Under the pieces are notes generated by a model, which was given only the letters and a program-made list of their open reading frames with translations, searched no databases and was not told the origin of the DNA. From sequence record MN445185.1: 64,000 nt of DNA. One strand, written 5' to 3'. The number at the start of each line of letters is the position of its first letter. The first letter of the stretch is position 1. This DNA comes from Escherichia phage vB_EcoM_EC001. A program made the translations under genes and the position numbers. Positions 11,920 through 40,454 of the stretch are shown piece after piece.

Positions 11920-14211
11920 GTGGACTACAATTCACCATTTCGTCTTAGTCAAGACGAGTATCATCGCGACATTGACGTTATCGATGCGTACTACGAACAA
12001 CTGGCGCTCTACATTCATACCGTCACCAACGGGAAATATTCTTTGGAGTTCTGTCGACAGCAGGTCGAAGAAATGTTCCAACCTGGTGGTGAGTTAGTAC
12101 ACGAATTCCCCGTGTGTAAGATGTGGGTGCGCAATCAAAAGACCGGCGATCGCGAAGAAAAATACACCACGGTAGATAAACTGTTCCGTACAGTGATTGA
12201 TAAGCAGATTATTTCTGCACCGTCGCTGACCTTTTATCTGCCTGAGCACGTCAAGCGCTCTAAGCTTGCTGAATTTACCGCAGAGAACGTGCGTAAGCGT
12301 GCGGTTGTTAAGAAAGAGATGTACGCAGCAGGTGCTGCGGGTAATGAAGTTCTGCGTATTAACAAAAAGAACGAACAGAACGCTGTTAAGACGTTGAACA
12401 ACGGGATGTCGGGTGCATTCTCATCACCGTACACGGTAATCTTTAACCAGTCTTCGCACTCTGTATTGACGTCAACCTGCCGTACGGCTACATCGTTCGG
12501 TAACGCGGGCAACGAACGTCTACTGGGCGGTAATCGTCACTACGACACGCCGTCCCGTGTTATCGACCACTTACTGTCTATTGGTACACTGACTAACTTT
12601 GCTGAGTTCAAGAAGTGTATGGAACTCTATAACCTCCACTACCCAACAGTGGACGAGGTTATGGAAGTGGTTATGTACTCTGCAGAGTTTTACTTCCGTA
12701 ACGACGAAGGGCTGGAGTTCATTCGTCACTACGTCGGTAATTGTAGCCCGCTGGTACGTGCAGCGTTTGTCTACATGGGTGACTTCTACCACCTGGCGAA
12801 ATACAACGATGAATTCATGCGTGGGTTTATCGGTGCGCTGATTGCCGAGGAGATGGAAGACGAGATCACCGATTGGGATGCTGCTGAGCGCTCTATCGAC
12901 GGTGACATGCAGATCATTATCTCGCAGTTCCGTACTGATATCGTGCCGTTAGGTAAGTCGTTCTCTGACGTTAAACTCAAAGACGAAAACACGAACAAAG
13001 CGGAACCGTGGGATAAGCAGGAAAAATACAAAGAGCTGATTCGCTCAGCTGTGTATCTGCAGAAAACCATCGGTAAGTACGCGTGCTTGATTCGTAATAT
13101 CCTGACTACCAAAAACCTGCCGATTAACATTGCCAGGATGCCTGACGTGGTTCGTCGTGTCGGTGTGGTATCTGATACCGACTCCACGATGATGACTGCA
13201 CAGTGGTGGGCACAGTGGTATACCGGTCAACATTACGGTCGTGAAGCTACGCGCGTATCGGATGCGATGATTTATATTGCAACCCAGCACTTACGTCATC
13301 TGATGGCGAGCATGTCGGCGAACATTGGCGTGGCGAAAGAGCGTTTGTTCTTGTACGCAATGAAGAACGAATTTAAGTTCGACTCCTTTGCGTTAACCAC
13401 AAAAGCAAAACACTACTTCTCCATCATCACTGGTCAGGAAGGACAATTGAAGTCCGACCCTGAGTTAGAAGTTAAAGGTGTGTCTTTACGTACGTCAAAC
13501 ATACCGCCTGTGGTCATGAAAGAGTTCAAACGCACGATTAAAGAACTCTGTGAGATTGTAGCGCGCGGCGATAAGATTAAGATTCTGCCTCTGCTGGAAA
13601 AGGTTGCTGCAATTGAGCACGTTGTGGTGGACTCTATTCGTGCTGGTAAAGCAGGCTACCTGAAAACAACCAACGTCAAAGACCGTAGTGCGTACTCTGA
13701 AGATGATGAAAAGAGCTACCACTACCACCGCATGTACAACGCCATCTTTGGACCGAAGTACGGCTACCTGGACGAACCGCCTTATGATGCCGTGAAGCTT
13801 CCGGTAAACCTGGAGAACAAAACAGCCGTTAAAGAGTGGCTGGAAAACATTAAAGACCCGATGATTAAGACCACCGCAACACGGTGGTTCGAAGAAAACA
13901 ACTATCGTACCTATCGTACTCTGATACTGCCAGAGTTCCTGGTGGAAAACTTCGGTATTCCGCCGGAGCTGATTGATGCTGCAGACACACGTCGAAGCGC
14001 ATTCTCCACAGTAGAACCTTACTATCACATTCTGGAATGTCTGGGTGTGTTCATGATGGACAAGAACAGAACTCGTCTGCTTTCGGATTACTACGGCGAA
14101 TCTGTAGACTCGGTCAAGGAAGAATTAGGTAGCGGTGAGTACGTTAAGAAATCTGAACGTGATGGAGAGGAAGAAGATGGGGAAGAAGATGGGGAAGAAG
14201 CGGAGGAGTAA
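11920..14211 (+). CDS. family-B DNA polymerase, C-terminal fragment (fingers, motifs B and C, thumb); acidic C-terminal tail
   Basis: GTG start with AAGGGG RBS. Lys/Arg-rich helix then KTLNNGMSG fits motif B (K-x3-N-x3-G); VVSDTDS fits motif C (DTDS); ends EEEDGEEDGEEAEE. No exonuclease or motif A, which lie in minus-strand ORF 43654..45438. Confidence 0.6.
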   Translation: MDYNSPFRLSQDEYHRDIDVIDAYYEQLALYIHTVTNGKYSLEFCRQQVEEMFQPGGELVHEFPVCKMWVRNQKTGDREEKYTTVDKLFRTVIDKQIISAPSLTFYLPEHVKRSKLAEFTAENVRKRAVVKKEMYAAGAAGNEVLRINKKNEQNAVKTLNNGMSGAFSSPYTVIFNQSSHSVLTSTCRTATSFGNAGNERLLGGNRHYDTPSRVIDHLLSIGTLTNFAEFKKCMELYNLHYPTVDEVMEVVMYSAEFYFRNDEGLEFIRHYVGNCSPLVRAAFVYMGDFYHLAKYNDEFMRGFIGALIAEEMEDEITDWDAAERSIDGDMQIIISQFRTDIVPLGKSFSDVKLKDENTNKAEPWDKQEKYKELIRSAVYLQKTIGKYACLIRNILTTKNLPINIARMPDVVRRVGVVSDTDSTMMTAQWWAQWYTGQHYGREATRVSDAMIYIATQHLRHLMASMSANIGVAKERLFLYAMKNEFKFDSFALTTKAKHYFSIITGQEGQLKSDPELEVKGVSLRTSNIPPVVMKEFKRTIKELCEIVARGDKIKILPLLEKVAAIEHVVVDSIRAGKAGYLKTTNVKDRSAYSEDDEKSYHYHRMYNAIFGPKYGYLDEPPYDAVKLPVNLENKTAVKEWLENIKDPMIKTTATRWFEENNYRTYRTLILPEFLVENFGIPPELIDAADTRRSAFSTVEPYYHILECLGVFMMDKNRTRLLSDYYGESVDSVKEELGSGEYVKKSERDGEEEDGEEDGEEAEE

Positions 14212-16805: not shown

Positions 16806-18659
16806 ATGGTAAAAATCGTTGACTCTAACAACAACGCTCAGCAGAACAACACTCAGACTCAAGACACCGCACCACTGGGCGGTCTGGGCAACGAGACTGT
16901 AAAAGTGCAAACTGCTGTGCCGGGTACTTCTACTGTCAGCCAATTCGATAACGCATTTGGCATCCGCAACATCAGCACCTATGCAATGCACTTCACCAAC
17001 CTCCTGGATGAGCTGAAGAAAAGCAACGAATACCTCAACGCATTCCGCTGGGGCACCATCGTCGGCGTGGGTAACGAAATGGGTTCCGCGGCGTATGTCG
17101 CAGGCCAATGGCAGGGCCACTGGCTGTATGGTATCATCTTCTTTGAACGCGGTCAGTCTCTGCGTCTGAAAGAAACTACCAACAACGGCCAGGAAGACTA
17201 CTACACCATCACTGAACTGTTCAACAAAGACGTGCTGGCAGTAGTACAGAAAAACATCATGGAAGCGCATGGTCTGACCAATGCGAACTTCATGATCATC
17301 AACTCCGTACCAGACCTGGGTAAAGTTCTGGATGCTGAGTGGGCACGTACACTGATGGGTCAGATGATGATGGGCATCTTCGGTCGTATCGCAGGCTACC
17401 TGGGTACGCTGAACCTGCGTAAGCATGACCGTTATCAGGCCGCAGTAATGCCGCTGGAAGATGGTGCGGTTGTTGATGCTAACGGCCACGCACAGCGTGC
17501 TGATTTCGCAATCACCGTTGAGCACAGCCCAAGCAACGTAACCGATGCCACTCCGACTCTGCTGGACACCAATCAGGTACAGGTGTATCCGCGTGTATCC
17601 GGTACCGGTTTCGTCAATATGCGTTTCACCGGTCAGAAGCCTGTCGTTAACGGCGTCTACGACCTGAAACAGCTGCAGGCTGAAATCGTAGTAAGTCTGA
17701 TCGATTCTCAAACTGAAGGTGCAATGGCACCGTATGAACGTCAACTGCTGCTGCTGGCTGCATTTGCAGAAATCGCGGCAATCGGTGGCTGGCGTGACCT
17801 GTTTGTGAAACGTCTGAACAAACAAGATCGCAAGTTCTCCCGTGTGGCAGAATACCTGTCCTGGGGTGCTGACGCTCGTCCTGATGTATCCAAAATCGAC
17901 GGTAGCCGTGAAGCTATCGAAGGTTGCCTGGATATGTTCGCACCGCGTGAAGCAGCACTGGTAGTTAGCCATCGTGCCGGTAACGGCCTGGGTGGTCTGT
18001 CTACTTTGCTGTCTGAAATTGCGGTCGGTTACGACAACTCTCTGAAACAGCTGCTCGCTATTCTGAATTCCATGTCCCCGCGTGATCAGAACGGCGAAGT
18101 TGTTGCAGCGACCAGCTTCACTGCAGTATTTGCTTCTGCACTGAAAGCACAGCTGGGCGATGCCTTCAATGGTACCATCCATTGCAGCCACATCGTGAAA
18201 GCAGCCGTACCGACTGTTTCCGGTGTTTACACCGGTACTGCACAGAAACGTAGCTTCCAGGATATGGACCTGATTTCCGTTGTTACCAAACTGGGTGATA
18301 ACGCGAACGACGTCTATAGCTACCTGAACGCACAGTCCTACAGCCACCGTGAACTGAACGAGCGTCAACAGCGTATCTACATGCTGAAACTGGCCGCTTC
18401 TCTGTTCGCATCCAAAGCACCGCAAGCTACCGGTGAATCTCTGGATATGGCTATCAACCCGATCTTCGGTAAATGCCTGCTGGACTTCGTCCGTAACAAC
18501 TGCACCTGGTCTATGACTGGTGTAAATGCCTACAACACGATGGCGACCTCTCTGTTCTTCAACAACGGTGGGGAAGACTTCACGCTGTCTGGCAACGGCC
18601 TGTCTGCAAGCGGTTCCGATTTCGGTCTGGGCGTGACTCTGAGCAACTTCAAACTGTAA
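16806..18659 (+). CDS. abundant protein with host-like codon bias; candidate phage-nucleus shell protein (chimallin-like), function unconfirmed
   Basis: 617-aa ORF with strong preference for ctg/ccg/ggt/cgt/aac codons, two promoter-like motifs upstream, TAAGGAA RBS, low-complexity N-terminal tail, immediately upstream of the RNAP beta-prime N-terminal gene. Confidence is for the CDS, not the function. Confidence 0.7.
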   Translation: MVKIVDSNNNAQQNNTQTQDTAPLGGLGNETVKVQTAVPGTSTVSQFDNAFGIRNISTYAMHFTNLLDELKKSNEYLNAFRWGTIVGVGNEMGSAAYVAGQWQGHWLYGIIFFERGQSLRLKETTNNGQEDYYTITELFNKDVLAVVQKNIMEAHGLTNANFMIINSVPDLGKVLDAEWARTLMGQMMMGIFGRIAGYLGTLNLRKHDRYQAAVMPLEDGAVVDANGHAQRADFAITVEHSPSNVTDATPTLLDTNQVQVYPRVSGTGFVNMRFTGQKPVVNGVYDLKQLQAEIVVSLIDSQTEGAMAPYERQLLLLAAFAEIAAIGGWRDLFVKRLNKQDRKFSRVAEYLSWGADARPDVSKIDGSREAIEGCLDMFAPREAALVVSHRAGNGLGGLSTLLSEIAVGYDNSLKQLLAILNSMSPRDQNGEVVAATSFTAVFASALKAQLGDAFNGTIHCSHIVKAAVPTVSGVYTGTAQKRSFQDMDLISVVTKLGDNANDVYSYLNAQSYSHRELNERQQRIYMLKLAASLFASKAPQATGESLDMAINPIFGKCLLDFVRNNCTWSMTGVNAYNTMATSLFFNNGGEDFTLSGNGLSASGSDFGLGVTLSNFKL

Positions 18660-24396: not shown

Positions 24397-24461
24397 GTTA
24401 AAATTTACGTTAGTGGGACATCATGTGTGAACCACTAGACTGCTTTTCCGAAAAGGATGAA

Positions 24462-25115
24462 ATGATGATTAACCAAGAAATTTTCAAAGACAAATGGCTT
24501 TACCCGCAGACCGAACCGGATCAGCAAAACCGTACGCGTAAACTCAACATCGAACCGAATGATTTCAACGGTGATGTTGAAACTATGAAGTTTAGCTACT
24601 CCTTTGGTAAGGGCGAAGGTCTCTATTTCTCTGCGCCGATTACGGTTTGCCGTACCATTATCGAAGCTCTGCAGGATTGTCTGCGTAAGAGCGAAAAGAG
24701 TATGCTGAAGTTTACTAACGAAAACGGCAACAAACCGCCCGTTAGTCTGATTGTTGGCCGTGAAGACAACCTGGTACCGTTCATCGCTATTGCCGGTGAA
24801 ATCCAGGGCGTTGGTGCCCGCCAGAAGAAGTTCTACTTCTCCTACCCGAAAGGTTTCCGTATTTTCCGCGACGGCCAGCAGGTTTCTGATTTAGAACTTG
24901 CTGAGCGCTGTGCACGTGCGTTTATCACTAACTTCGAGAAGTTCTTACAGAACCTGGAAGAGAAATATAAGCCGCGTGAATTCCAGCAAGGTGGTGGTAG
25001 CTTCGGTCGTGGCGGATACGGCGGTGGCCAGGGTGGCGGTCAGCGTAGCGGCGGTTATCAACAGCAACAATCTGCACCTCCAGCAACCACTGATTCTTAC
25101 GACGAATTCCTCTAA
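24462..25115 (+). CDS. abundant protein with SSB-like C-terminal tail (Gly/Gln-rich linker plus acidic tip); possible ssDNA-binding protein or SSB-tail mimic
   Basis: Host-like codon usage; ends GGGSFGRGGYGGGQGGGQRSGGYQQQQSAPPATTDSYDEFL, resembling the E. coli SSB tail (shared QQSAP, acidic aromatic terminus). Start chosen at ATG after AAGGA; track ORF starts 24423. Confidence 0.5.
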   Translation: MMINQEIFKDKWLYPQTEPDQQNRTRKLNIEPNDFNGDVETMKFSYSFGKGEGLYFSAPITVCRTIIEALQDCLRKSEKSMLKFTNENGNKPPVSLIVGREDNLVPFIAIAGEIQGVGARQKKFYFSYPKGFRIFRDGQQVSDLELAERCARAFITNFEKFLQNLEEKYKPREFQQGGGSFGRGGYGGGQGGGQRSGGYQQQQSAPPATTDSYDEFL

Positions 25116-25250: not shown

Positions 25251-26885
25251 ATGAAAATTACGAAGATTAAAGACCGGATGACAATCGAGCATCACGGTCA
25301 AGAGGTCTCATTTATTGGCTTACGTTATCGGAAGGATAACAACGCACCCGACTACATCACTGTTAAAGGTAAACAGATTGCACGCGACAACATTCTCTTC
25401 ATGGAATTACAACGCGTGTGGGATTATTTAACGCCAGACGAACAAGATGAACTGTTCATGGCGTATCTGATGCTGGACGAGCTGGCAAACGAATCGACGG
25501 AAACGCAGCGTAAGCACATGCCGAAGATTGTGCAGACGATTGCGAAGTTCCACAAGGCCGAAGTGTATCGTAAGCTGTATCCCATCGATAAGCTGTGGAT
25601 TCCGCAGAACATGGAAGATACGCACGATGAAATGAACAGTAATTATCCGGAAGCGATGACGTACATTCGTCCGGACTATTACGAGTTGTTGATACTGGTC
25701 CTGATGATTAAACCGTATATTCCGGTGTTCCTTACCATGGGGACGTTCCCGATAGGTAAGAACTTGCCAATCGAAACACATCGGAAAATGGTGTACAATC
25801 TGACATACTGTCTGGAGATGCTTCAAGACACAGAAGTCATGTCTTTACCTGCTATTCCGAAACTGCGTGGGTTCCTACAGACAGTGATGGAAAAGGTAGA
25901 AAAAGAACTGGCAAACAAAGGTACGAACAGCACCAGTTTGTCGGTACTGGCTACGGTGCGGGGCTATGGCACGGATATGATGGAAGATTATATCCTGGCG
26001 TATGCTATTATTAAATTGTTGGCTGTCCGTGAAGTCGGTGGTGAATTACCGGTTGAAATCATGGTTAACAACAATATCGTCACCGGCATGTATTTTCTGG
26101 TTAAACAAGAGATTGAAACAGGTTTTGCAAACAAAATCTCTAACCAGCCGGTGCTGTTGAAAGCGCATCCAGAAAGTGTGGTATTCAATGGCGAAAAGGG
26201 CAAGATAAACGCCATGGATTTGGTGCAGGCACGTTCTCCTGCCCAGATGAAAGAATACGTCCGTACCGAGTACGTATTTAAAGAATACCGCTCTTTCTTG
26301 AAAACAATGCGTCTGGATAATGCCGCTCCAGCAGATGTTAAGTTATTGATTGATTCGCAACTGGCAACACACGACGGTCCTGTCTATACATTGCACGAAT
26401 GGTTAGTCGCATTAGCACTCCATCGTAGCGCGCATTATAAGACGTATACTGAATGTGGACCAGAAGCGTTTCGCTACGGTATGGCGTTGGCGCAGGCAAC
26501 TTATCTCAATTATGGAATGTATGACGTTGCGCAACTGTTAAGTTGCAATATGGTGCGTTCTGAGATGTCTGCCGGTTATGCAGCCGATCCAATTCGATCT
26601 GAACTCAAAGCAGATTTAGATAGATATTATCTTCAGGAGTATCGCAACCCGCGTAATCTCGAACCGCAATCTACACCACGGGAATCACTGACCTTGTTAC
26701 ACAAGGATCACATCAACCCGTATCTGTTCCATCTCAGGGCTACACCAGAAGCAGCTGCGCTGCTGAAGTGTGAGACGGATCAGCCAAACTATATACCTCA
26801 CTTGTCACTGCACAATAGCCTGGCGGAGTTTATGGTGTTGAATGCACGTCGCAAGTTAGAAGAAGTTGAATGGTTTAATTCTTAA
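25251..26885 (+). CDS. hypothetical protein
   Basis: 544-aa ORF downstream of promoter-like motif. Confidence 0.65.
   Translation: MKITKIKDRMTIEHHGQEVSFIGLRYRKDNNAPDYITVKGKQIARDNILFMELQRVWDYLTPDEQDELFMAYLMLDELANESTETQRKHMPKIVQTIAKFHKAEVYRKLYPIDKLWIPQNMEDTHDEMNSNYPEAMTYIRPDYYELLILVLMIKPYIPVFLTMGTFPIGKNLPIETHRKMVYNLTYCLEMLQDTEVMSLPAIPKLRGFLQTVMEKVEKELANKGTNSTSLSVLATVRGYGTDMMEDYILAYAIIKLLAVREVGGELPVEIMVNNNIVTGMYFLVKQEIETGFANKISNQPVLLKAHPESVVFNGEKGKINAMDLVQARSPAQMKEYVRTEYVFKEYRSFLKTMRLDNAAPADVKLLIDSQLATHDGPVYTLHEWLVALALHRSAHYKTYTECGPEAFRYGMALAQATYLNYGMYDVAQLLSCNMVRSEMSAGYAADPIRSELKADLDRYYLQEYRNPRNLEPQSTPRESLTLLHKDHINPYLFHLRATPEAAALLKCETDQPNYIPHLSLHNSLAEFMVLNARRKLEEVEWFNS
26612..26636. promoter_or_regulatory. 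promoter-like motif copy 5, internal to the 3-prime end of CDS 25251..26885
   Basis: AGATTTAGATAGATATTATCTTCAGG about 260 nt upstream of the next gene. Confidence 0.35.
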
Positions 26886-26897
26886 GGAGTATTTAAA

Positions 26898-28598
26898 ATG
26901 CAGCTTGTAAATCTACTGATGTATCCGGTCTACGATGTTCCAGAGCAAGTTCGTCGCCGCATCGGCTTTAACGCATCGACGGGTGCACTGGATGACTTAG
27001 CAGCAGCGGTTGAACTGGGCGGGGAAAAAGCTGTGGGAACACAGCAGTATCAAGAAGCGTTATCTGCCATCGTGGGCTTCGATGGCACCCAGAATGGTTT
27101 TGAGCGTCCATTCATCAACGTGTCCGATGATGACAATCGTCCTGTACAGTTCCAATGGGAATCACGTGATACCGGTATCTTTAACTTCGTGGCGGTGTTT
27201 ATTGCTAAACCTCTGAATGCAACACGCACTCAGGAAACGCAATACATCGTCTCCGGTTATACCAGTCAGGCAGAAACCAGCCTGGGTAGCCTGCTGCCGG
27301 ACGATATGGTGTTGTACATTAACGACATCTACGGCTTACAGGCAACGTATACACACGATGCCCTGGGCGGCAAAACATTGAACCCAGACTCATTCCGTCT
27401 ACTGGATAACTACGTTTTATCGAAAGCGCTGTCTGTTGAAGGTCAAACAGAAAGTACGGTAGATATCATTTCGATCGCGAAAGCAGCGGACATGGTAAAA
27501 CGTATTGAAATGAATAGCGGTGAGAAGTTCGTCCCAACGAGCGACTCTGTGCTATCCGCAACCAGTAGCTCTGCACCACAGTTGATGGTATCCCAACTCC
27601 AGCGTCCAGAAAACTACGTATCTGCAATCAGTAATGCGTATCTGGCAAGCTCTGGGGTAGATACCGAACTCGGTAGCGTGGAAAGCTTCTTTGCAGGTAA
27701 TAACTCCATCGGCGTTGAATCTGAATTGAAGCAGCGTGGTGTTATCCGTAACTACAGCAACCACGAACTGATTGCTGCGATGCGTCAAGCACTCCAGAAC
27801 GGGATGTCTGATGTATCTGGCGGTTGGAAAGCAACCAGTAAGGCGACGTTCCGTTTGGCTGATTTGCGTAATGCGATTGTCAACCCAATGCGGTTGGATG
27901 AATGTATCCGTGAATCGCTGGCGCTGGCAAGTCGCCGTGGGTTGGGTGCAGGGCTGGTTAACCAAACCGACCACTGGATTGGACGTAATGGCTTCTCCAC
28001 GCAGGGTAGTCTAGTTGCGTATGATCTGGCTATGTCTATCGGGCCGATTATGTCACGTAACCTGATTGGTGAAGTGAGCTTTGTCTTTGATAACCGCAAC
28101 ACAGATATCATGATAGAGCCTACGCTGGAAGTTATTCCTAACTCAGTCAGCAGCATCACGCACCATCAGTTACCTGCTGCATTAGGTCGTCGTTTCTTGC
28201 AGAACATGAAAGAAGCGATGGTTCAGGTTACTAAACATAACCATATTCGCTGCCACATGCTGGTCACCGCATTGTTGGGGACCGTTACTCGTATTGAAAT
28301 CCGTGTCGACGACGAACCGCTGGAATATTACACCTACGCGTCGTTTATGCAATTCCGTCTCCATACCGGCAACACCACCGATCTCAAATACGTTGGTGAG
28401 CTGGCACAGAACACCGCAACGCTGCTGAAAGCCGTGGAAGAAGGTTATACAGAATTCGAGAAAGGCCAAGGCCGGGGTCGAATGCTATCTAACATTCCAA
28501 CTAACACAGGTGGCTTAGATCCTCTTGGAGGTCTTGACCTGGGTGGTGGCTTAGGCGGTATAGGCGGAAACGGACTCGGCAACGGTCTCATTGATTAA
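26898..28598 (+). CDS. hypothetical protein with glycine-rich repetitive C-terminal tail
   Basis: 566-aa ORF, TAAGGAG RBS; tail GGLDPLGGLDLGGGLGGIGGNGLGNGLID. Confidence 0.65.
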   Translation: MQLVNLLMYPVYDVPEQVRRRIGFNASTGALDDLAAAVELGGEKAVGTQQYQEALSAIVGFDGTQNGFERPFINVSDDDNRPVQFQWESRDTGIFNFVAVFIAKPLNATRTQETQYIVSGYTSQAETSLGSLLPDDMVLYINDIYGLQATYTHDALGGKTLNPDSFRLLDNYVLSKALSVEGQTESTVDIISIAKAADMVKRIEMNSGEKFVPTSDSVLSATSSSAPQLMVSQLQRPENYVSAISNAYLASSGVDTELGSVESFFAGNNSIGVESELKQRGVIRNYSNHELIAAMRQALQNGMSDVSGGWKATSKATFRLADLRNAIVNPMRLDECIRESLALASRRGLGAGLVNQTDHWIGRNGFSTQGSLVAYDLAMSIGPIMSRNLIGEVSFVFDNRNTDIMIEPTLEVIPNSVSSITHHQLPAALGRRFLQNMKEAMVQVTKHNHIRCHMLVTALLGTVTRIEIRVDDEPLEYYTYASFMQFRLHTGNTTDLKYVGELAQNTATLLKAVEEGYTEFEKGQGRGRMLSNIPTNTGGLDPLGGLDLGGGLGGIGGNGLGNGLID

Positions 28599-28610
28599 GG
28601 ATTATTAACC

Positions 28611-29978
28611 ATGAAATTGATTGAATTCTACCGTTCGTTTCTGACCTCGCTCGGATACGGATTCGAAGGTGACATGCTGACTATCGATGATGGTCATCCG
28701 GCAATGTTCACCTACAACAAAGTGAAGCGCCGCTTGGTGCTTCCAACTGCAGCGATGATTAAGCGTGGGTTGGAAGATGACGAAGGTAGTGAATGTCATG
28801 CGTTCCACCCACTGTGTGAATCGGTACTGGCTGGCGAATCTGGAACGATTCGTTTCCTGAAGAAAGCCATCAGCGCGAACCTCTTCCTGAAAAGCTTCGA
28901 GTTAATCGATGCGATTTTGGAAACAGCAGCCGAAGGAAAAAATATCCGTCTGGCATCGTACAAGAAGTTTTTAAGCGATGTGGTTTGTGCTGACCTGAAA
29001 GATCCAACGATGGATAAGAAACTGGTTCAGAGCTGGCACGCAGTGAAGAACTACGTTTACGGGTTGCTGGAAGAAGATAAAAAGACAAAGATCACCAGTA
29101 TCTTCATCTCCAGCGATATGACCATTGAAGGTATCAAATATATCCGTGTGGCGAACTACAAACACATGTTTGAAGAAGAGTCACTGGATGGTACGGCAAC
29201 ATTCTTCGGTGCCAAGCTCCAGCGTAAGCAGGATAAGGTTATTATCTTTAACCTGCTAACTGCAGTGTTTGGTTGGTATCCTTCGGTTACGGGTTCTAAC
29301 GATCCGCGTCCGTACTTCGGTTCTTTGGCACGCGGTTGGGCACAATACGTGACCAACTACAATCAAGTGGTTCGTGGTCTGCGTGACCACACTCCACTGC
29401 GTCCGTTAGAAGAAGAATGGATTGGCCAACTGGATAACATGAGCGTTTATGATAACGTTATCCAAACTCTGCCGTATAATACCGGCCCACGTAACGATCA
29501 GGCAACAGACACCACCGCAACGGATTTCCGTATCGGGCGTACACCTGCCGGCACAAAGCCGGTCGTTGCTTTAGCTTCTCAACAAGCTCCGCAGGAAAAT
29601 CTTGATCTCAACGATCCGGTAAACTATTTCCGTGCGAAGAAAGCGCAACAGGCGTCTTCAGCTAATAGCTTCAATGCGTTAGCACCGAAGATTCAGGAAG
29701 CGCTGCGTGAGAACAACGGCCATTTACCGAAAGGGACAATTAAAGAACTGTCTCTCGGTGAAGCGCTGCGTGGTAATGCGGTGACGAAAGAAAGTGGTCT
29801 GGGTTCTGGTTTGCTGGGAAGTAGTAATAATCTCTTGGGGGGTAGCACGCAGTTGGGCGGCGGTAGCACCAACCTCTTAGGAGGGAGTAGTGACGTGTTA
29901 GGTGGTCTGGGTGGTTTAGGTGGCGGAAGTAGCAGCAGTTTAGGCAACCTACCATTCTCATCAGCTAATTTACGTTAA
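28611..29978 (+). CDS. hypothetical protein with glycine/serine-rich repetitive C-terminal tail
   Basis: 455-aa ORF; tail SGLGSGLLGSSNNLLGGSTQLGGGSTNLLGGSSDVLGGLGGLGGGSSSS. Confidence 0.65.
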   Translation: MKLIEFYRSFLTSLGYGFEGDMLTIDDGHPAMFTYNKVKRRLVLPTAAMIKRGLEDDEGSECHAFHPLCESVLAGESGTIRFLKKAISANLFLKSFELIDAILETAAEGKNIRLASYKKFLSDVVCADLKDPTMDKKLVQSWHAVKNYVYGLLEEDKKTKITSIFISSDMTIEGIKYIRVANYKHMFEEESLDGTATFFGAKLQRKQDKVIIFNLLTAVFGWYPSVTGSNDPRPYFGSLARGWAQYVTNYNQVVRGLRDHTPLRPLEEEWIGQLDNMSVYDNVIQTLPYNTGPRNDQATDTTATDFRIGRTPAGTKPVVALASQQAPQENLDLNDPVNYFRAKKAQQASSANSFNALAPKIQEALRENNGHLPKGTIKELSLGEALRGNAVTKESGLGSGLLGSSNNLLGGSTQLGGGSTNLLGGSSDVLGGLGGLGGGSSSSLGNLPFSSANLR

Positions 29979-29989
29979 GCGTTAGAAAG

Positions 29990-30016
29990 AAGGGACTGGG
30001 CGTCCCTTCTTTTTTT
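29990..30016. terminator. intrinsic terminator (aagggactgggcgtccctt plus T-run)
   Basis: Between convergent genes 28611..29978 (+) and 30016..30339 (-). Confidence 0.5.
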
Positions 30017-30339
30017 CAAGATTCTACGATAGTCGATAAGATGTTACTTACCACACCGACACTAGGAACCAATAAGGTCCTTATCTCTGGCGTGAAATCA
30101 AACGGAGTAGAAATTCCGTTCATTAACATCATCGGATAAATAATACTATTATCGTACTGTTTGAGACGACAGTACGCGTAGAAACTGTGTACCTCTGGGT
30201 AGGCATATTTTGGGTCAACAACTTCTTCTGTAGTATCTGGGTGTTTGCGAAGGAAGTCTGTATAGTCATGCAACACCTTATACTTGGTCGAATCAGGCGA
30301 AGGTATTATTTCGGATAAGGTAGCAAATTTATCTAGCAT
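30016..30339 (-). CDS. hypothetical protein
   Basis: 107-aa ORF; TAAGGAG 5 nt upstream of ATG on minus strand. Confidence 0.6.
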   Translation of the reverse strand: MLDKFATLSEIIPSPDSTKYKVLHDYTDFLRKHPDTTEEVVDPKYAYPEVHSFYAYCRLKQYDNSIIYPMMLMNGISTPFDFTPEIRTLLVPSVGVVSNILSTIVES

Positions 30340-30405: not shown

Positions 30406-32643
30406 ATGAAAACACCAGTCGAACTCATGTCAAGCGTTGCTGACCGTGAGGTGAATATCACTGGCGTATCTGGGGCACGTGCCTCAATGGTGGGTGGACA
30501 TATGAAGTCGGCGGTACCACTGGACAATCCAGATCCGACTATCCATTTTACCGGCGCTGATGTGAACTACCACGATTATTGTTTTAACGATATCGTGGAA
30601 GACAGTGGTACCGTGTGCAGTTACACAACCAAAGAAGGTGTTACTCGTGCAGCTGTTTTTGCACGCTATGGTCGTGAAGGGGATCACGATCCGCTCCAAC
30701 ATGTTATCTTCTTCACGCGCGCAGATTTAACCAACCAGCGCAAAGTGATGATTGATGTAATCGATATCAAGTATTACACCAACCACGATAACATTTTCTC
30801 GTCTAAGAAAGAGGCTACTGGGAAACTTCAGGCGTTGCTGCGCGGACAGACGCAGCACCTGGAAAAAGATGAAATGCTTACCGTACTGCCGGCACAGAAA
30901 GACGGTGAGTTTGTCGATGGGGTCAACCTGCACACTGTGACAATGTCGCACCCGGACATTATCGAGGACTCGTACACCATCTCCGAAACTGCAGCGAAGG
31001 CGATGCACGCTTATGGTTTGCGTGCAATCGACTTTACCTTGCGCGACGACGAGTACCTGCTTGATACGTATGGGACAACGGGTATTGATGGCGTTCGTCG
31101 GCCACAGTACCTGCCCAATAAAGGACAGGCAATTCGCGATGATGGGTTGGTTATAGCCGCGCGTCGTTTCGATAAGCTGTGGGCGGCTATTGACTCGCAC
31201 GTGGGCGAAACACAACATATCTCTCCACACTTCGACCGTTGTGAGTATGTTGATGCTGACCCTGAGCATTACAAAGCGCGTCAGGCCGGCGACTTTGAAA
31301 AGATGGAACGTACCGGTTCTCGTGTCGTTGATATTCAGGTATGGCGGGACGAAACCAAATGCGATCGTGGTGTTAACAATATCGCATGTACCGAAGAGAA
31401 CAAACGCGAGTTAGATCACTACGCGAACGCTTTGAAACGTTTTTACAATGATATCGTGCGGTTCTATTTTGCGATGTCCAAAGACAAGAACATTGTCTGG
31501 TCACCGAAAGCGTTTGAGATCCTTGACAAGGCGTTCTGTTCTGAGACGTATGAAGTCTATAACGACTTCCGTGAAGAGATTGGTCGTGAATACGATGAAG
31601 CCATGCGTAAAGGTGAGTATAACCGTTCTGCTGATAAGAACGTGTTGAACAAACTGGCGCAGCCGGTTCAGCGTGGTCTCTGGGACCCAATTGGTAGCTA
31701 CACGATACGCATCGTGGTACGTTATCCAATCCCAGTTACCGTCTCATCGAAAATCACCGACCGTTCAGGTACAAAAGGTATCGTGGGTGCAGTGCGGCCT
31801 GATGAAGAAATGCCGATTAACGAGTTCGGAGAACGTGTGCATGTCATTCGTTCCATGAACGCCGTAATTCGTCGTTCGACTTATGCTGCGCTGTTCCACA
31901 TGTATTGGTCTGCTGCATCCGAGCAGTTGAAGATGCGGTTGAAACCATTACTTGCCGCCAACCAGGTTGACGAAGCCTGGGAAATCCTGATGGACTATAT
32001 CGATCGCTATAACCCACGCTGGACATTCTATCTCAATGCCAGTCACCCGGATACTGGGTCACGTCTGGAACTCTTTAAAGAGATTTACGACTTCACGATT
32101 CGTATCTGGCTTCCCCACGAATTGAATGCTACCCAGGTAGAAATCTGCCGTGCTCTAGGCGAGTATGCACCACGCAAGTCTAAGCTACTGATTACTAACT
32201 ATCAGGGTGAGAAAGAGTGGACGAAGAACCAGTTCTACGTCGGCATGGTAGAGACTCTGCGCCTGGATAAAACCGGTCGTGAGTTCTCCAGTATCTCGTC
32301 GATGTACACGAACTATTTGGGTTGTATTGATGCATCCAACCAAGGACGTGGTTCATATCCGATTAACCTGAAAGGGTTGAAGTGGGGTGGTCCTTCCGAG
32401 CAGCGTCTTACCGACGGCTTTGGTCCGGGCAACTTCCCCGAAACTCATGACCGCGCTAATAACCCTGCGGTACACCGTGCGATCGTAACGGGGTTGTATA
32501 ACTCGCCAACACCAACCAATCCGGGGGTGCTGGTCGATCGTAAGAAACTGCCAATGGGAGATTCGCAGATTGACAGGATGATACGTAACATCCATCGCTG
32601 TGAAGGTTTTGAATTAGTGCGTCCAATTCGGGAGGATAAATAA
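30406..32643 (+). CDS. multisubunit RNA polymerase beta-like subunit, C-terminal half
   Basis: GARASMVGGHMKSAVPL resembles GANMQRQAVPTL; IIEDSYTISE resembles NFEDSILVSE; DRSGTKGIVGAVRPDEEMPINEFGERVHVIRSMNAVIRRSTYAALFHMY resembles GRHGNKGVIS..PVEDMPY..G.PVDIVLNPLGVPSRMN.GQI.E.HLG. Confidence 0.65.
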   Translation: MKTPVELMSSVADREVNITGVSGARASMVGGHMKSAVPLDNPDPTIHFTGADVNYHDYCFNDIVEDSGTVCSYTTKEGVTRAAVFARYGREGDHDPLQHVIFFTRADLTNQRKVMIDVIDIKYYTNHDNIFSSKKEATGKLQALLRGQTQHLEKDEMLTVLPAQKDGEFVDGVNLHTVTMSHPDIIEDSYTISETAAKAMHAYGLRAIDFTLRDDEYLLDTYGTTGIDGVRRPQYLPNKGQAIRDDGLVIAARRFDKLWAAIDSHVGETQHISPHFDRCEYVDADPEHYKARQAGDFEKMERTGSRVVDIQVWRDETKCDRGVNNIACTEENKRELDHYANALKRFYNDIVRFYFAMSKDKNIVWSPKAFEILDKAFCSETYEVYNDFREEIGREYDEAMRKGEYNRSADKNVLNKLAQPVQRGLWDPIGSYTIRIVVRYPIPVTVSSKITDRSGTKGIVGAVRPDEEMPINEFGERVHVIRSMNAVIRRSTYAALFHMYWSAASEQLKMRLKPLLAANQVDEAWEILMDYIDRYNPRWTFYLNASHPDTGSRLELFKEIYDFTIRIWLPHELNATQVEICRALGEYAPRKSKLLITNYQGEKEWTKNQFYVGMVETLRLDKTGREFSSISSMYTNYLGCIDASNQGRGSYPINLKGLKWGGPSEQRLTDGFGPGNFPETHDRANNPAVHRAIVTGLYNSPTPTNPGVLVDRKKLPMGDSQIDRMIRNIHRCEGFELVRPIREDK

Positions 32644-34748
32644 TGGCGGGTCGTTCTGTACACGTGCGTGATTTGCGTATGCTTAACTCTGATCAGGTGT
32701 GGAAACTACGCGGGCGTTATTACGTGACATTCGACGATGGTAAGTCGTTGGAAATGTCTAGTCGCCACATCAAACTCAGCTGGCCGTATTGGGGTGTGTC
32801 GCGTCTGTATCCGCAGGTGCCCACTCCATCGACCATGGCGTATCGTCCAGGTCAGGTAGCAACAGATGACCTGCATCTGGACTTTATGTCGGAAGCAGCG
32901 GTACTGGCCCGTAAAGCAGGTGTCGACCTTGCTGAAACGCGTTATATCCTGAGTCAACATGTCTACGCCGATGCGTTCAACATGACAGTGAAGAACCTGC
33001 TGTCCTATTGCACGACAATCGACTTTGATACGATGATGGAGATCTACGACCATCCGAACTTCGAACTCATCCGTCAGTGGGAAGTGCAATATCCTACTGG
33101 CTACGATGAAGATGGTCGGGATATGGTTGAAGAAGCGTACAAGCTTATCGAGAAAATCTTCAAAGACCCTGCGCTACGGTATAACCCGGTCGTGATGTCG
33201 GTACTGGATGGTACTGTGAAGATGAACCAGGTACTGCAAGCCTTCGTGCGTGGTAAAACGTCAGAAATTGACTCACGTGTATACACCAATCAGGTGTGGG
33301 AAGGCTTCTTTACCGGAATGCATTCGGTTATTTCGCGTTTGAAAGAATCTGGTGCAACTTCACGTTCCCACTTGTACAACACTGACAAGATTGCCGAAGC
33401 AGAATACGCCTCACGTAAACTGCAGCTGGCAGCAAACGTACTGATGTATTTCACGTACGACGACTGCGGTACAACTCACGCACACCGCTACACGTTTAAG
33501 GATACGCAGCTGGATGAGCGTGCCTATAAAGCGATGGTGGGGATGCGTTATCGTTTAGAAGGTGATAATGGTCCGTGGTTGAGATTTGAGAAAGGTGGAT
33601 ACGCAGACCTGGTTGGCAAACCGCTGGTCTTCCGTAGTGCCATGACCTGTAAAGAGATGGCGAATCAGTCCATCTGTGCGACCTGTATGGGGGATTTGAT
33701 TTATAACCTCTCTGAAGGTACGTCACCAGGTCATCTGGCATCCACGTCCATCTCGGAAAAGGGTACACAGGGAATTCTCTCTACCAAGCACCTTGACTTC
33801 TTGCGTTATCTGCTCAACCTGGTACTCACCCCACGTATGCGTGAGTATATGACCGAATACAAACATAACTCTCTGAAAGGGTTGTGCTTGCTGCCAAAAC
33901 CACAGCGTGGGAATTGGTCAGAATACGAGTTGGTTGTTACCGACAAAGTTTATTCGGAGCTGAGCCAGATTGCGTATCATGAAGATCTCGATGCAATTGA
34001 TGAAACGGCATTACCAGAAATCACCGACTTAACTTTCCAACGTCGTTTAGAAGATGGGCAGATAATCGCTGCGGATTCTATCGATGTGCGAATGGGTGTT
34101 TGTGGGAACTTCTCTAAACCGTTCCTGCACTACTTCTTGAAACAACGAGCGAACATTCGTATCGAGAAGAAGACGGTTCAGATTCCTTTGAAAGGATGGA
34201 ACCCGAAACACCCGGTCCTGGTCTACACCAACCGTTCTGAATCGATGGCGGAGTTCGTAGCCGGCTTAGAAACCAAGCTCCGTTCGATTGCTGCCGATAA
34301 GAACGAAGACATTGTGGAAATCATCAACACAGCCTCGACTGTGAAGCTGAACAAGAAACAAGGTCGTGTGAAACCGGTGACGTTGGTTGAAATGGGTGGT
34401 GCTACAGAGAAACAGTGTACTTATGCGTTGATGGACACGTTTAAGTATATCCAGCGTAAGCTGAGTGGTATACCGATGACGCACATTGCGATTATGTTGG
34501 CGATATCTCGTGTAGAGTCGCCAACCAATCCGTTCCCGGCAGTAGGATTTGACAGTGAGGATTCTACTAATGCCACCGGGAAACGGTTTGTCGATCACAA
34601 CACGCTCATTAGTTTGCGCTCGGCAATTCCGATGTTGTTGTTTGAAGGACAGCAGGGGAATATCGATCGCGTTGGTTTTTATACCGAGTACAAAATCCCG
34701 GCATCGTTGTACGATGACCTAGGAGCCGCTGTGGTAATTGAGTTGTAA
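32643..34748 (+). CDS. multisubunit RNA polymerase beta-prime-like subunit, C-terminal fragment (bridge helix and trigger-loop region)
   Basis: ATG overlaps the beta stop by 1 nt. ISRLKESGATSRSHL resembles the bridge helix ALKTANSGYLTRRL; ASTSISEKGTQGILSTKHLDF resembles SIGEPGTQLTMRTFH. Confidence 0.55.
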   Translation: MAGRSVHVRDLRMLNSDQVWKLRGRYYVTFDDGKSLEMSSRHIKLSWPYWGVSRLYPQVPTPSTMAYRPGQVATDDLHLDFMSEAAVLARKAGVDLAETRYILSQHVYADAFNMTVKNLLSYCTTIDFDTMMEIYDHPNFELIRQWEVQYPTGYDEDGRDMVEEAYKLIEKIFKDPALRYNPVVMSVLDGTVKMNQVLQAFVRGKTSEIDSRVYTNQVWEGFFTGMHSVISRLKESGATSRSHLYNTDKIAEAEYASRKLQLAANVLMYFTYDDCGTTHAHRYTFKDTQLDERAYKAMVGMRYRLEGDNGPWLRFEKGGYADLVGKPLVFRSAMTCKEMANQSICATCMGDLIYNLSEGTSPGHLASTSISEKGTQGILSTKHLDFLRYLLNLVLTPRMREYMTEYKHNSLKGLCLLPKPQRGNWSEYELVVTDKVYSELSQIAYHEDLDAIDETALPEITDLTFQRRLEDGQIIAADSIDVRMGVCGNFSKPFLHYFLKQRANIRIEKKTVQIPLKGWNPKHPVLVYTNRSESMAEFVAGLETKLRSIAADKNEDIVEIINTASTVKLNKKQGRVKPVTLVEMGGATEKQCTYALMDTFKYIQRKLSGIPMTHIAIMLAISRVESPTNPFPAVGFDSEDSTNATGKRFVDHNTLISLRSAIPMLLFEGQQGNIDRVGFYTEYKIPASLYDDLGAAVVIEL

Positions 34749-37870: not shown

Positions 37871-38491
37871 ATGAGTCGTCGCAAAAAGAAACCCGCTTAT
37901 AACCCACGTAAAGACGCCCGCGATTTCGTCAAGGCGATGATGCAGTCTGTGTTGAAAAAACAAGCTGTGTTTATCGAAAGTACCGAATTCCTGTCAGGCA
38001 GAATTGATCGGGAGCGTGAAGTAACTGAAGCCATTACGCACGAAGAGCTGAAAGCCTTTACGTTGAAAGCGCTGGATGAAGCACAGGCGGCTTTCCTTGG
38101 CATGTGTCAGCAAGGCAAAGAGCTGTTCGGTAAACTGATTGTTGAGGCAGATGCTAAGGCTGTGCCGGTGTTTGACATGCTGAACGATAACAGCAAAACG
38201 TGGAAAGAAATCAAAGACCAGTTCCACGTCGACCACACCGAACTGTCCCTGATTGACCAGCGGGCAAACATGCTTGCGATGGATATTCAGGGCACCAGTA
38301 TCGAAATCTTCTCCACGTATAACGCGAAAGTGAAGTTCGTGAAGCAGGCGCTGAATAACGGGCATACCGTGGAACAAGCCGAAGTTCTGTTGGCTGAAGC
38401 TCTGGCTAATAATTCGAAGGAACTCCCTAAAAACGCCATCGTCGATCACAACGACGTTGTAGTAGAAACCGAGGAAGCGGCACATGTCTGA
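37871..38491 (+). CDS. hypothetical protein
   Basis: Internal ATG (MSRRKKKPAYN) of track ORF 37829..38491 with AAAGGA RBS. Confidence 0.55.
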   Translation: MSRRKKKPAYNPRKDARDFVKAMMQSVLKKQAVFIESTEFLSGRIDREREVTEAITHEELKAFTLKALDEAQAAFLGMCQQGKELFGKLIVEADAKAVPVFDMLNDNSKTWKEIKDQFHVDHTELSLIDQRANMLAMDIQGTSIEIFSTYNAKVKFVKQALNNGHTVEQAEVLLAEALANNSKELPKNAIVDHNDVVVETEEAAHV

Positions 38492-40454
38492 GATCCAAGA
38501 TCAGCGTCCGGGTAATGCCCGTCGCCCTAATCCCGACCAGCCAGCCCCTGTGGCGGCTGCTACCCAACAAGAGATGATTCTTCCGACCGTGCCTGATGAC
38601 GCGACCTCGGATGCAATCATCATGGCTATTAAACAAGCCAATCCCGATTTTTCTTTTGCCCGTGCAGAAGAAGTTTATCACCAACACTATCATCGTCCGG
38701 AGCCTAAGCTTGAGCGTCCGACGTTTGTAGAAGAGGCGTTGCCTGAACCTGCTGCACCTGTACCACCGGCACCTCAGACTTTTGCTGAACAGGTGCAGGA
38801 GCACCTACATCGTGCCCCGGAACCGGTAGTAGAGAAAGCGCCTACGGTAGAACCTGCTCCGCAGCCAAAAGCTCCGGAAGCGGTTGCACCGGCACAGCCG
38901 GCTGTAAAAGAAATGGAAGATGCAGCACCGAAGGTTCCGGAACAACAACAGATGCGTGAGATTGACTTCGGTAATACCCATTTAGCTGAAACCGCCGAAA
39001 TGGGTGAAGATGAAGCCGATCGTATTCTGACACAGTCGAAGATGTTGATTGGTCTGAAACAAGACCCTAACATCATTGCAGACTCCCTGCAAAAGTTCCT
39101 CGGTAATATTAAACGTTCACCGAAAGACGGCCGGCTGCTATTCGAAAGCCCTGAACAGCAACAGGTTTACGACGACATCTATCGTGCTTTGAACATGACC
39201 CCGCCACGTCTACAGGACGGCGTACCGGCATTCGCGGGTGCACTGGACCGTGGTGATACCGCTTGGGAACAGCGTGTGATGTTGCCGGACGGCAAGGCAT
39301 CTGGTGCTATTGCACCGCGTGACAATATGCACACTGGCGCGCTGGCTGCCTTACGTCGTGTACGTAAGTCGGGTATTCCGAACATGGTTTGGTTGCCGGC
39401 CACAGGTATCTACGTGGGCTTCCGCGCACCGCACGAACGTGACCTTTGTGACTTCGACATGCGTCTAACGCTGGAAACTGCGACCATCGGTATGCAGACC
39501 TACGGATTGATGCTGTCGTCGTCTTCTGGCGTGTACATGCGCCACATGGTTGAATTCGCACTTCAGTTTGTTACCGAAGCAACCATCGATTGTGCGGGTA
39601 ACGATCTGCGTACGGTGCTGTTGGATACCATTGATCTGGCTGACTACTGGCTGGTTATTCTGGGTCCGTTGCAGGCGAAGTGGCCGTCTGGTATTCCATG
39701 GACGCTGATGTGTGGCGAAGACGGTTGCAACCAGCAGGAAGATGTGAAGCTGAACATCGCGCGTTGTATCCGTTTCGGTTCCGGACTGTTTAGCGACCTG
39801 CAGAAACAACTGTGGGCACGTCAACGCGGTACTGAGCGTCCAGTGATTTCTATTGCAGAACAGCGCGAATATATCGCGGCGCATCAGGTTGATCCGTCCT
39901 CGGTATTTGAATACCACGACGTGCGTGTTGAATTTGGCCGTTCCACCCTGGGTAGCTTCTTTGACTCCACCGAGAAGTGGATTGAAGACGTTAACGCGTC
40001 AACTACGGCAGCGCTGTCTGAATTTGCTACCGAGCGTGAACGTGAATCCCATATGCGTTTAACTGCGGAAGCCCGTCGCTTAACGCGTTACGCTCACATG
40101 GTGAAGTCTATCACTGTTAATGAGCAACGTGAAGTAAACGGTGAAATGCAGGTTATCCCACAAACTGAAACCGACACAGCGAAAATCGTTGAGATGCTGG
40201 AAGAGCTGTCTTCCGACCGTATCTACGTTGGTCAGTTTGAAAACGCGATTGCTGAATACAACGAACGTACACGTTTAGCGGTATTCGGTTACATGGGTAA
40301 ACGCTGCCCGGCGTGTGGTAAAACACACGGCGAGAAAGACGGTCTGTATCGCGGTATTGTTACCATCAGTCCGGACAGGGTTTTTTTCGTGCTCTCTCGA
40401 GTGGTGTCCGAGATTCAGAAATTCTTGCTGGATCAATACGCCGATATTGGCTAG
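38484..40454 (+). CDS. hypothetical protein with proline-rich PAPE-repeat N-terminal region and single CxxC near the C-terminus
   Basis: 656-aa ORF, host-like codon usage; low-complexity Pro/Ala/Glu-rich N-terminal segment (about residues 80-140) with repeated PAP/PEP units; later CPACGKTHG. Confidence 0.6.
   Translation: MSEIQDQRPGNARRPNPDQPAPVAAATQQEMILPTVPDDATSDAIIMAIKQANPDFSFARAEEVYHQHYHRPEPKLERPTFVEEALPEPAAPVPPAPQTFAEQVQEHLHRAPEPVVEKAPTVEPAPQPKAPEAVAPAQPAVKEMEDAAPKVPEQQQMREIDFGNTHLAETAEMGEDEADRILTQSKMLIGLKQDPNIIADSLQKFLGNIKRSPKDGRLLFESPEQQQVYDDIYRALNMTPPRLQDGVPAFAGALDRGDTAWEQRVMLPDGKASGAIAPRDNMHTGALAALRRVRKSGIPNMVWLPATGIYVGFRAPHERDLCDFDMRLTLETATIGMQTYGLMLSSSSGVYMRHMVEFALQFVTEATIDCAGNDLRTVLLDTIDLADYWLVILGPLQAKWPSGIPWTLMCGEDGCNQQEDVKLNIARCIRFGSGLFSDLQKQLWARQRGTERPVISIAEQREYIAAHQVDPSSVFEYHDVRVEFGRSTLGSFFDSTEKWIEDVNASTTAALSEFATERERESHMRLTAEARRLTRYAHMVKSITVNEQREVNGEMQVIPQTETDTAKIVEMLEELSSDRIYVGQFENAIAEYNERTRLAVFGYMGKRCPACGKTHGEKDGLYRGIVTISPDRVFFVLSRVVSEIQKFLLDQYADIG

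Follow-up and report, generated by a model that had tools for sequence, protein, structure and literature searches.

It is an open question by what route folded proteins pass through the shell of the phage nucleus; a pore, a flippase-like step and an unfoldase have been proposed in the literature. PicA/Imp1 is the only well-characterised selectivity factor, and no function has been assigned to gp70/gp64, the conserved protein encoded next to it. The 64,000-nucleotide (nt) stretch of Escherichia phage vB_EcoM_EC001 analysed here (sequence record MN445185.1, hereafter the window) bears on this question through two consecutive open reading frames (ORFs) of the plus strand, found exactly at 26898..28598 (566 amino acids, aa) and 28611..29978 (455 aa), which both end in low-complexity tails dominated by glycine and leucine. 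What these two proteins are and what their tails may do is addressed below. The first is the ortholog of PicA/Imp1 and the second a member of the gp70/gp64 family, for both of which published work shows a location at the phage nuclear shell (PMC10643120; 10.1101/2024.03.27.586873), and the chances are about even that the tails are multivalent sticker-and-spacer regions associating shell proteins at the import site.

The window is 98.7-99.3% identical to SPN3US-like Seoulvirus jumbo phages (Chimalliviridae), and the 566-aa protein is, by homology, the SPN3US-type ortholog of PicA/Imp1 (phiKZ gp69), the phage-nucleus protein importer. It matches phrog_3141 over residues 1-535 (E 6.6e-157), as do phiKZ gp69 (E 2.7e-179) and PhiPA3 gp63 (E 4.2e-170), and alignment of the SPN3US clade with the phiKZ clade of PicA by hhalign gave a probability of 97.7% (E 1.6e-12, 466 columns); pairwise BLASTP of the ORF against phiKZ gp69 was not significant. 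An AlphaFold2 model (predicted template modelling score 0.80) is folded over residues 1-532, the homology extends across the folded body, and the gene lies between the gp68-like and gp70-like genes of a genome that also encodes chimallin (ChmA), the position conserved for PicA/Imp1. The phiKZ protein, which the phage cannot do without, is seen as a punctum on the chimallin shell and licenses protein import, selecting its cargo through several of its folded surfaces; the punctum and the role in selective import are established for phiKZ, PhiPA3 and Goslar only. Shell localisation, import function and the tail-driven condensation described below for ChmC were all documented in published work on homologs, from which they would carry over to the window.

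The 455-aa protein is placed by its sequence in the phiKZ gp70/PhiPA3 gp64 family, which is shell-associated and of unknown function in the literature. It aligns with phiKZ gp70 (BLASTP E 2e-13) and matches phrog_3520 (E 8.5e-135), to which phiKZ gp70 and PhiPA3 gp64 belong too. The homology to the family covers an N-terminal domain of about 290 aa, whose invariant residues include H66, P67, L68 and E70. A disordered linker (aa 306-330) precedes a segment with helices at 336-352, 359-367 and 382-386, modelled with a predicted local distance difference test (pLDDT) of 55-73 and conserved in the alignment of the SPN3US supergroup, and the tail follows. Neither protein had a Pfam match at E <= 0.01, and sequence searches for solved structures found none for PicA, for the gp70-like protein or for the ChmA of the window. 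PhiPA3 gp64 localises to the nuclear shell (PMC10643120) and phiKZ gp70 is listed among nuclear proteins; furthermore, PhiPA3 gp61 (ChmC), gp63 (PicA) and gp64 are shell-localised, expressed early and absent from virions, and gp63 and gp64 were pulled down with ChmB (PMC10643120). A virion or tail-fibre-like Gly-rich protein was ruled out, the PhiPA3 homologs being found at the shell and not in virion proteomes.

Both tails stand out from the proteins that carry them. In the 32-residue PicA tail there are 14 Gly, 7 Leu, 2 Ile and 3 Asp and neither Lys nor Arg, Gly and Leu thus accounting for 21/32 positions vs 17% in the protein body, while the 61-residue tail of the gp70-like protein contains 19 Gly, 14 Leu and 14 Ser (Gly plus Leu 33/61), a single Arg and a net charge of 0. 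The initial annotation had described tails dominated by GGL and LGG repeats, and the composition bears this out: the observed Gly plus Leu content was reached in 0/100,000 draws from each protein's own composition. When 30-aa segments were ranked by entropy over the complete set of 100 six-frame ORFs of the window that are 100 aa or longer, the lowest value belonged to the tail of ORF 24423..25115 (H = 2.04), followed by the gp70-like (2.13) and PicA (2.18) tails, and the fourth segment, at 2.49, lay above these three; both tails are therefore among the three lowest-complexity segments of the 64 kb. They are also predicted to be disordered by AlphaFold2, with pLDDT 28-33 over residues 391-455 of the gp70-like protein (all of 387-455 below 50) and 34-46 over residues 531-566 of PicA (533-566 below 50), and they adjoin confidently folded bodies. 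Leucines of the gp70-like tail recur with a period of seven residues (8 co-occurrences at lag 7 vs 3.5 expected, p = 0.004). RTX-type GGxGxDxUx nonapeptide repeats, or a secretion signal of that kind, were ruled out, neither protein having a Pfam match and the period of the tail being seven and not nine.

At the DNA level the sole array reported by Tandem Repeats Finder under the tails is a 9-bp unit repeated 2.8 times at 29899-29923, and Gly is encoded in the tails by 3-4 codons and Leu by 4-5. Since these codons are varied, the composition is kept at the protein level; a recent DNA slippage artefact was ruled out for the window by the lack of a DNA repeat together with the varied codons.

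The same architecture recurs throughout the gp70/gp64 family. A profile search with the N-terminal domain retrieved 1,854 cluster representatives (50% identity), 1,012 of them with E <= 1e-30, and the family-wide counts that follow rest on the best 150 of the 1,854. All 150 have the domain at residues 1 to ~290, and 149/150 continue beyond it in a C-terminal extension (median 167 aa); in the last 70 residues the median fraction of Gly is 0.14, that of charged residues 0.04 (0.25 in the domain) and that of Ser, Thr, Asn and Gln 0.31. The dominant sticker residue is Tyr or Trp in 64/150, Met in 32/150, Phe in 29/150 and Leu in 11/150, and the tail is R/D-rich and strongly charged in the remaining class (14/150). 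Among the homologs of the two proteins the tail comes in several flavours: the SPN3US and Asesino clade has LGG/LLGG, the Machina and ChrisDB clade has GNSLLD motifs, phiKZ, PhiPA3 and RAY have tails rich in Met, Gln and Pro, and other relatives have literal FG (Phe-Gly) repeats (SFGGGSSFGGSSFG, NPFT/NPFG). Among the 150 gp70-like tails, P0090 repeats SMFG/SLFG about eight times with Asn, Ser and Gln spacers, P0082 has SLFG and GLFG, P0093 has NMFGAPQQAS four times and P0106 has NNPFGNS repeats. On this comparison the LLGG tail of the window is an uncommon flavour of a family-wide design, and the tails are not incidental.

The R/D/S-rich subclass includes Vibrio phage pVp-JHP1101 (L013, 8733-10589 and 20001-21212), L035 (5399-8224), P0079, P0167, P0169 and others. 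In pVp-JHP1101 the ChmA and PicA tails are Arg-rich too, the entire set of tails having switched chemistry jointly.

It had been anticipated in the initial annotation that the repeats would be incidental if tails were absent from close homologs; every non-scrambled homolog of either protein down to about 38% identity is tailed. Its view of the tails as flexible agrees with the predicted disorder, and the LGG repeats are real; what it missed is that the LGG flavour is one of several interchangeable compositions, and that the two proteins belong to PicA/Imp1 and gp70/gp64. The survey of PicA tails is narrower than that of gp70-like tails, because the related-locus search with the PicA alignment gave 17 close loci only and a repeated PicA homolog search returned the same set. 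Scrambled homologs occur in several Salmonella phage SPFM records (LR5359xx), where PicA and gp70-like proteins are made of correct sequence blocks in the wrong order (P0029, P0030, P0033, P0034, P0063, P0064, P0067, P0075 and P0076); for example, a PicA tail is fused to pieces of the gp70-like protein, and tblastn matches to them are split into 4-8 fragments, which points to faulty assembly of these records.

The ChmA gene of the window is orthologous to that of Asesino gp039, for which shell formation was shown by experiment (PMC11724907), and its SPN3US homolog was named chimallin by Laughlin et al. It belongs to phrog_8316 (unknown function) and the phiKZ ChmA to phrog_4795 (nuclear shell protein); since the PHROG families differ, profile-based annotation would miss the ChmA of the window. 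This protein also ends in a tail, and both the PicA and the ChmA tails were found to match the gp70-like tail within phages. The sample for PicA comprised 21 phages, namely 13 representatives whose PicA proteins are less than 70% identical and eight further loci taken from distant gp70-like clusters. Of the 3-mers of a PicA tail, a fraction of 0.113 recurs in the gp70-like tail of the same phage vs 0.050 across phages, a difference reached in 0/10,000 permutations; for 4-mers the values were 0.056 and 0.013. An internal PicA segment used as control gave no excess of this kind (p = 0.20). The ChmA tail has k-mers in common with that of the gp70-like protein (p = 1e-4 for k = 2 and p = 0.004 for k = 3), and tail Leu content correlates across phages (rho 0.67-0.74, p 0.003-0.008). 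No sharing was found between the ChmC tail and the gp70-like tail (p = 0.98-0.998), which argues against a simple phage-wide compositional bias. The motifs common to the PicA and gp70-like tails are NPFG in L037, PMMP in L038, an R/D/S-rich motif in L035, GNSLLD in the Machina clade and GGL/LGG in the SPN3US clade, and in L032 LFG is paired with SMFG. The identity of the proteins, the reality of their tails, the predicted disorder, the conservation and this motif matching were shown in the present analysis.

On these grounds we infer an association of tail with tail and a role in assembly at the import site. In such disordered tails, hydrophobic stickers (here Leu) would be set apart by Gly together with Ser, Thr, Asn or Gln at a charge of nearly nil, and would make many weak like-with-like contacts, mutually and with the similarly composed C-terminal tail of ChmA. 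These contacts could concentrate PicA and the gp70-like protein and hold them at the shell, where the import machinery would thereby be assembled or retained. A precedent in the same gene block is provided by ChmC, whose N/G-rich disordered tail is required for the formation of condensates and which, over-expressed without its tail, failed to rescue the knock-down phenotype in Goslar (10.1101/2023.09.22.559000). The initial annotation suggested that such tails often serve self-association or docking, and this agrees with the published shell location and with the motif sharing within phages. If correct, the finding extends the ChmC result, and disordered tails would be a general organiser of shell-associated proteins beyond ChmC.

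Several observations weigh against the sticker-and-spacer reading. Upon co-expression in Escherichia coli, phiKZ Imp1 bound Imp6 (gp67) but gp70 was not recovered with it; a pull-down could miss contacts that are weak and multivalent, but the result remains negative. The PicA tail is short and is missing in phage RAY, therefore it is not essential everywhere, and the strongly charged R/D-rich tails have a different chemistry. Moreover, the tail-coding DNA of the two genes is similar in two metagenomic phages, over 17/18 nt in L035 (6916-6933 vs 8038-8055) and 24/31 nt in L037 (6945-6975 vs 8292-8322), and gene conversion between the neighbouring tails could lie behind some of the motif sharing. 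Concerted evolution may therefore contribute, though no DNA similarity was found between the two tail-coding regions of the window. Finally, the permutation p-values overstate independence because the phages are related to one another.

The C-terminal ends of the proteins suggest another arrangement, unlikely in our view, in which the Gly-rich part is only a tether and an extreme C-terminal motif mimics CTS2 of ChmA and plugs a pocket of the shell, inserting PicA and the gp70-like protein into the lattice like a docking peptide on a leash. The last 10 residues of the 201phi2-1 chimallin (CTS2) dock onto another protomer, and their deletion abolishes self-assembly (Laughlin et al.). In the SPN3US supergroup ChmA ends in NFKL, DYKL, SFTL or HFTF, PicA of several relatives in NFKL, GFKL, NFTL, PFSF, NFKF or GLKF, and gp70-like proteins in NFTF, SFNY, GFKW or GFAW; in L029 all three end in F[ST]F, and in PhiPA3 the ends are ...DLGLL for PicA and ...GGLGLL for gp64. 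Among 13 phages, C-terminally anchored comparisons give a greater similarity within than across phages for PicA vs the gp70-like protein (p = 0.02-0.04) and for the gp70-like protein vs ChmA (p = 0.02-0.05 for k = 3-5 and 0.05-0.10 for k = 6 and 8), although these p-values are marginal and uncorrected for many comparisons, the 13 phages are related, and the similarity of PicA to ChmA is not significant in them. In the window itself the termini NFKL, GLID and ANLR are mutually dissimilar, and a single terminal motif leaves the repeats, up to about eight along gp70-like tails, unexplained.

The literal FG-type repeats of P0090, P0082, P0093 and P0106, with Asn, Ser, Gln and Gly spacers and a charge of nearly nil, in a family published at the shell and beside the importer, raise the possibility that the tails of the gp70-like protein, PicA and ChmA occupy an import opening as a cohesive phase that admits licensed cargo only, a functional counterpart of the FG-repeat phase in nuclear pores. 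Such a permeability barrier would speak to the crossing of the shell by proteins, yet it seems distinctly unlikely. The tails measure 30-300 aa, as opposed to the low-charge regions of FG nucleoporins of up to ~200 residues or more (PMC8391076), both tails of the window together contain one Phe, no known pore contains PicA or a gp70-like protein, cargo selection depends on folded surfaces of PicA, and the R/D-rich subclass is unsuited to a hydrophobic phase. Equally doubtful, though of wider consequence, is the proposal that the three tails jointly form a cohesive FG-nucleoporin-like phase at a single import site, in which Phe, Leu, Met, Tyr and Trp would be interchangeable as stickers but would have to match within a phage. 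If this were true, the cohesive phase would be an independently evolved selectivity filter of the nuclear-pore type in a bacterial virus, and matched stickers could help to keep import specific to each phage species during co-infection.

The fast divergence of the tails and their growth through expanding repeats (in L032 and L037 the tail DNA contains diverged repeats of 27-30 nt), together with the DNA-level similarity in L035 and L037 and the tail-less PicA of RAY, would be expected if they were passive spacers, i.e., tolerated low-complexity expansions that lack a specific partner and resemble each other through shared mutational bias or gene conversion. This is less likely than sticker-and-spacer regions, and indeed very improbable: the extension is almost universally retained and consistently depleted in charge, the ChmA tail co-varies with the gp70-like tail from a distance of 10 kb, the ChmC tail of the same genomes follows a different trend in composition, and the window has varied codons and neither a DNA repeat nor similarity between its tail-coding regions. 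Also less likely, and hardly probable, is a role of the gp70-like protein in mRNA export or in the hand-off of transcripts from non-virion RNA polymerase (nvRNAP), with a tail like the low-complexity domains of RNA-binding proteins, as the position of the gene between nvRNAP subunit genes and near that of the RNA-binding ChmC, the R/D/S-rich subclass akin to RS or RD domains and the many Y/G/Q-rich tails might suggest, since no RNA-binding family was found in Pfam and the gp70-like tail of the window has its single Arg and no net charge.

The families themselves are clearly not new. A search of PubMed Central (PMC) and bioRxiv full text for links between PicA or gp70/gp64 tails (FG, nucleoporin, low-complexity, prion-like) and the phage nucleus found none, and the publications on the homologs cited above discuss no tail on PicA or on gp70/gp64. 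We could not find described the tail architecture that runs through the gp70/gp64 family, the interchange of its stickers (FG repeats among them), or its co-variation with the PicA and ChmA tails.

The features of the region are collected in Table 1. The gene order corresponds to phiKZ gp65-gp74 with one-to-one synteny, the nvRNAP beta and beta' genes being the counterparts of phiKZ gp71-74. The initial annotation had placed the two ORFs between a promoter-like motif and RNA polymerase genes; the latter are indeed present downstream, with a Pfam RNA_pol_Rpb2_6 match of 24.1 bits that exceeds the cut-off, whereas the promoter-like motif is at chance level, 14 sigma-70-like matches being found in the region vs 10.9 +/- 4.1 in shuffles. 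The gp68-like gene ends 12 nt 5' of the PicA gene, with which it is probably co-transcribed, and the gp68-like, PicA and gp70-like genes, each 12 nt from the next, look like a tight three-gene block (25251-29978) resembling a single transcription unit. The hairpin that follows was not among the matches of a consensus terminator scan; lying between the gp70-like gene and a minus-strand ORF, it has the look of an intrinsic terminator that works in both directions and closes the block.

Table 1. Genes, protein segments and the hairpin of the chimallin to nvRNAP region of the window.
Feature	Coordinates	Strand	Remarks
Chimallin (ChmA) gene	16806..18659	+	between DNA polymerase and nvRNAP beta' fragment genes
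ChmA tail	18549-18656	+	SLFFNNGGEDFTLSGNGLSASGSDFGLGVTLSNFKL; 10 kb from the gp70-like tail
SbcD gene			counterpart of phiKZ gp65 by synteny
Gene of 278-aa protein			counterpart of phiKZ gp66 by synteny
ChmC/Imp6 homolog	24423..25115	+	counterpart of phiKZ gp67; phrog_3284 common to both
ChmC homolog tail	24984-25112	+	QQGGGSFGRGGYGGGQGGGQRSGGYQQQQS...; G/Q/Y/R-rich, tip DSYDEFL; lowest-complexity segment of the window
Homolog of phiKZ gp68	25251..26885	+	fifth (sigma-like) nvRNAP subunit; BLASTP E 4e-13; phrog_3209 common with phiKZ gp68
PicA/Imp1 ortholog	26898..28598	+	566 aa; SPN3US gp31; counterpart of phiKZ gp69
PicA C-terminal low-complexity tail	28500..28595	+	aa 535-566, TNTGGLDPLGGLDLGGGLGGIGGNGLGNGLID; lies beyond the PHROG profile
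gp70-like protein	28611..29978	+	455 aa; SPN3US gp32; counterpart of phiKZ gp70/PhiPA3 gp64
gp70-like conserved N-terminal domain	28611..29489	+	aa 1-293, ends at IQTLPYNTGP; fold without solved relative
gp70-like helical segment	29616..29768	+	aa 336-386, between linker and tail; AlphaFold2, moderate confidence
gp70-like C-terminal low-complexity tail	29793..29975	+	aa 395-455, SGLGSGLLGSSNNLLGGSTQLGGGSTNLLGGSSDVLGGLGGLGGGSSSSLGNLPFSSANLR; about six degenerate LLGGSxx heptads
Hairpin	29984..30014	.	13-bp, GC-rich, A-run before, U-run after; -18.1 kcal/mol, z = -4.1 vs shuffles
nvRNAP beta fragment gene	30406..32643	+	phrog_3295, E 6.4e-268
nvRNAP beta' fragment gene	32643..34748	+	phrog_3015, E 1.1e-240

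The minus-strand ORF between the gp70-like and nvRNAP beta genes (30016-30339, 107 aa, phrog_3455) has equivalents of 105-127 aa, likewise reversed and in the same place, in nearly all of the loci compared; it is labelled 'putative baseplate wedge protein' in one GenBank record, which seems unlikely for a gene in this setting. The ChmC tail ends in an acidic-aromatic tip in nearly all phages examined, for instance DEDMPSF in phiKZ and ADDLPF in RAY, less clearly in 201phi2-1 (ELASFDW). This tip resembles the C-terminal tip of the bacterial single-stranded DNA-binding protein (SSB). Elsewhere in the window, a 763-aa ORF (11920-14211) has an acidic low-complexity C-terminal tail (…EEEDGEEDGEEAEE), 38484-40454 contains a Pro/Ala/Glu/Lys-rich low-complexity stretch (APEPVVEKAPTVEPAPQPKAPEAV…) and 57393-58652 an acidic one (DAAEAAADGEGEDGEEPMEVEEDMPDD…).

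Compared with known systems, the tails resemble FG nucleoporins of the GLFG type in combining hydrophobic-Gly motifs with uncharged Asn, Gln, Ser, Thr and Gly spacers, and in being disordered regions on a protein at the transport gate of a genome compartment; SLFG, GLFG, SMFG or NPFG repeats are present in some relatives only. They differ in that they are not homologous to nucleoporins and fall far below them in length, Leu takes the place of Phe in the phage of the window, and no transport receptors are known for the phage tails. The disorder of FG nucleoporins is shared, but the motifs of the window are LG, GL and LLGG instead of multiple Phe-Gly motifs, and tails of 32 and 61 aa (family median extension 167 aa) do not amount to their long low-charge stretch; the window tails are not members of the FG-nucleoporin class because they fail on both motif and length.

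Further parallels are found within the phages themselves. The ChmC/Imp6 (PhiPA3 gp61) tail is likewise disordered, rich in Gly and C-terminal, and its shell-associated protein is encoded in the same gene block, but it is built of Asn, Gly, Tyr and Arg with a conserved acidic tip and without Leu, does not co-vary with the gp70-like tail, and belongs to a protein that binds RNA via a Whirly domain. The CTS1 and CTS2 segments of ChmA are likewise flexible C-terminal extensions that tie shell components, in a protein whose tail composition tracks that of the gp70-like tail; they become ordered on docking in defined pockets, whereas the PicA and gp70-like tails are known here as predicted-disordered. 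PicA/Imp1 of phiKZ and PhiPA3 is homologous to the ortholog of the window along the whole folded body and occupies the same slot of the conserved gene block, with a pairwise identity to phiKZ gp69 of ~17% and a tail that is P/Q/A/N-rich in phiKZ-like phages and G/L-rich in the window. Finally, phiKZ gp70, PhiPA3 gp64 and 201phi2-1 gp126 share with the gp70-like protein the homologous N-terminal domain, the gene position and the succession of domain, linker and low-complexity tail, the stickers being Leu and Gly in the window and Met, Gln and Pro in the Pseudomonas phages.

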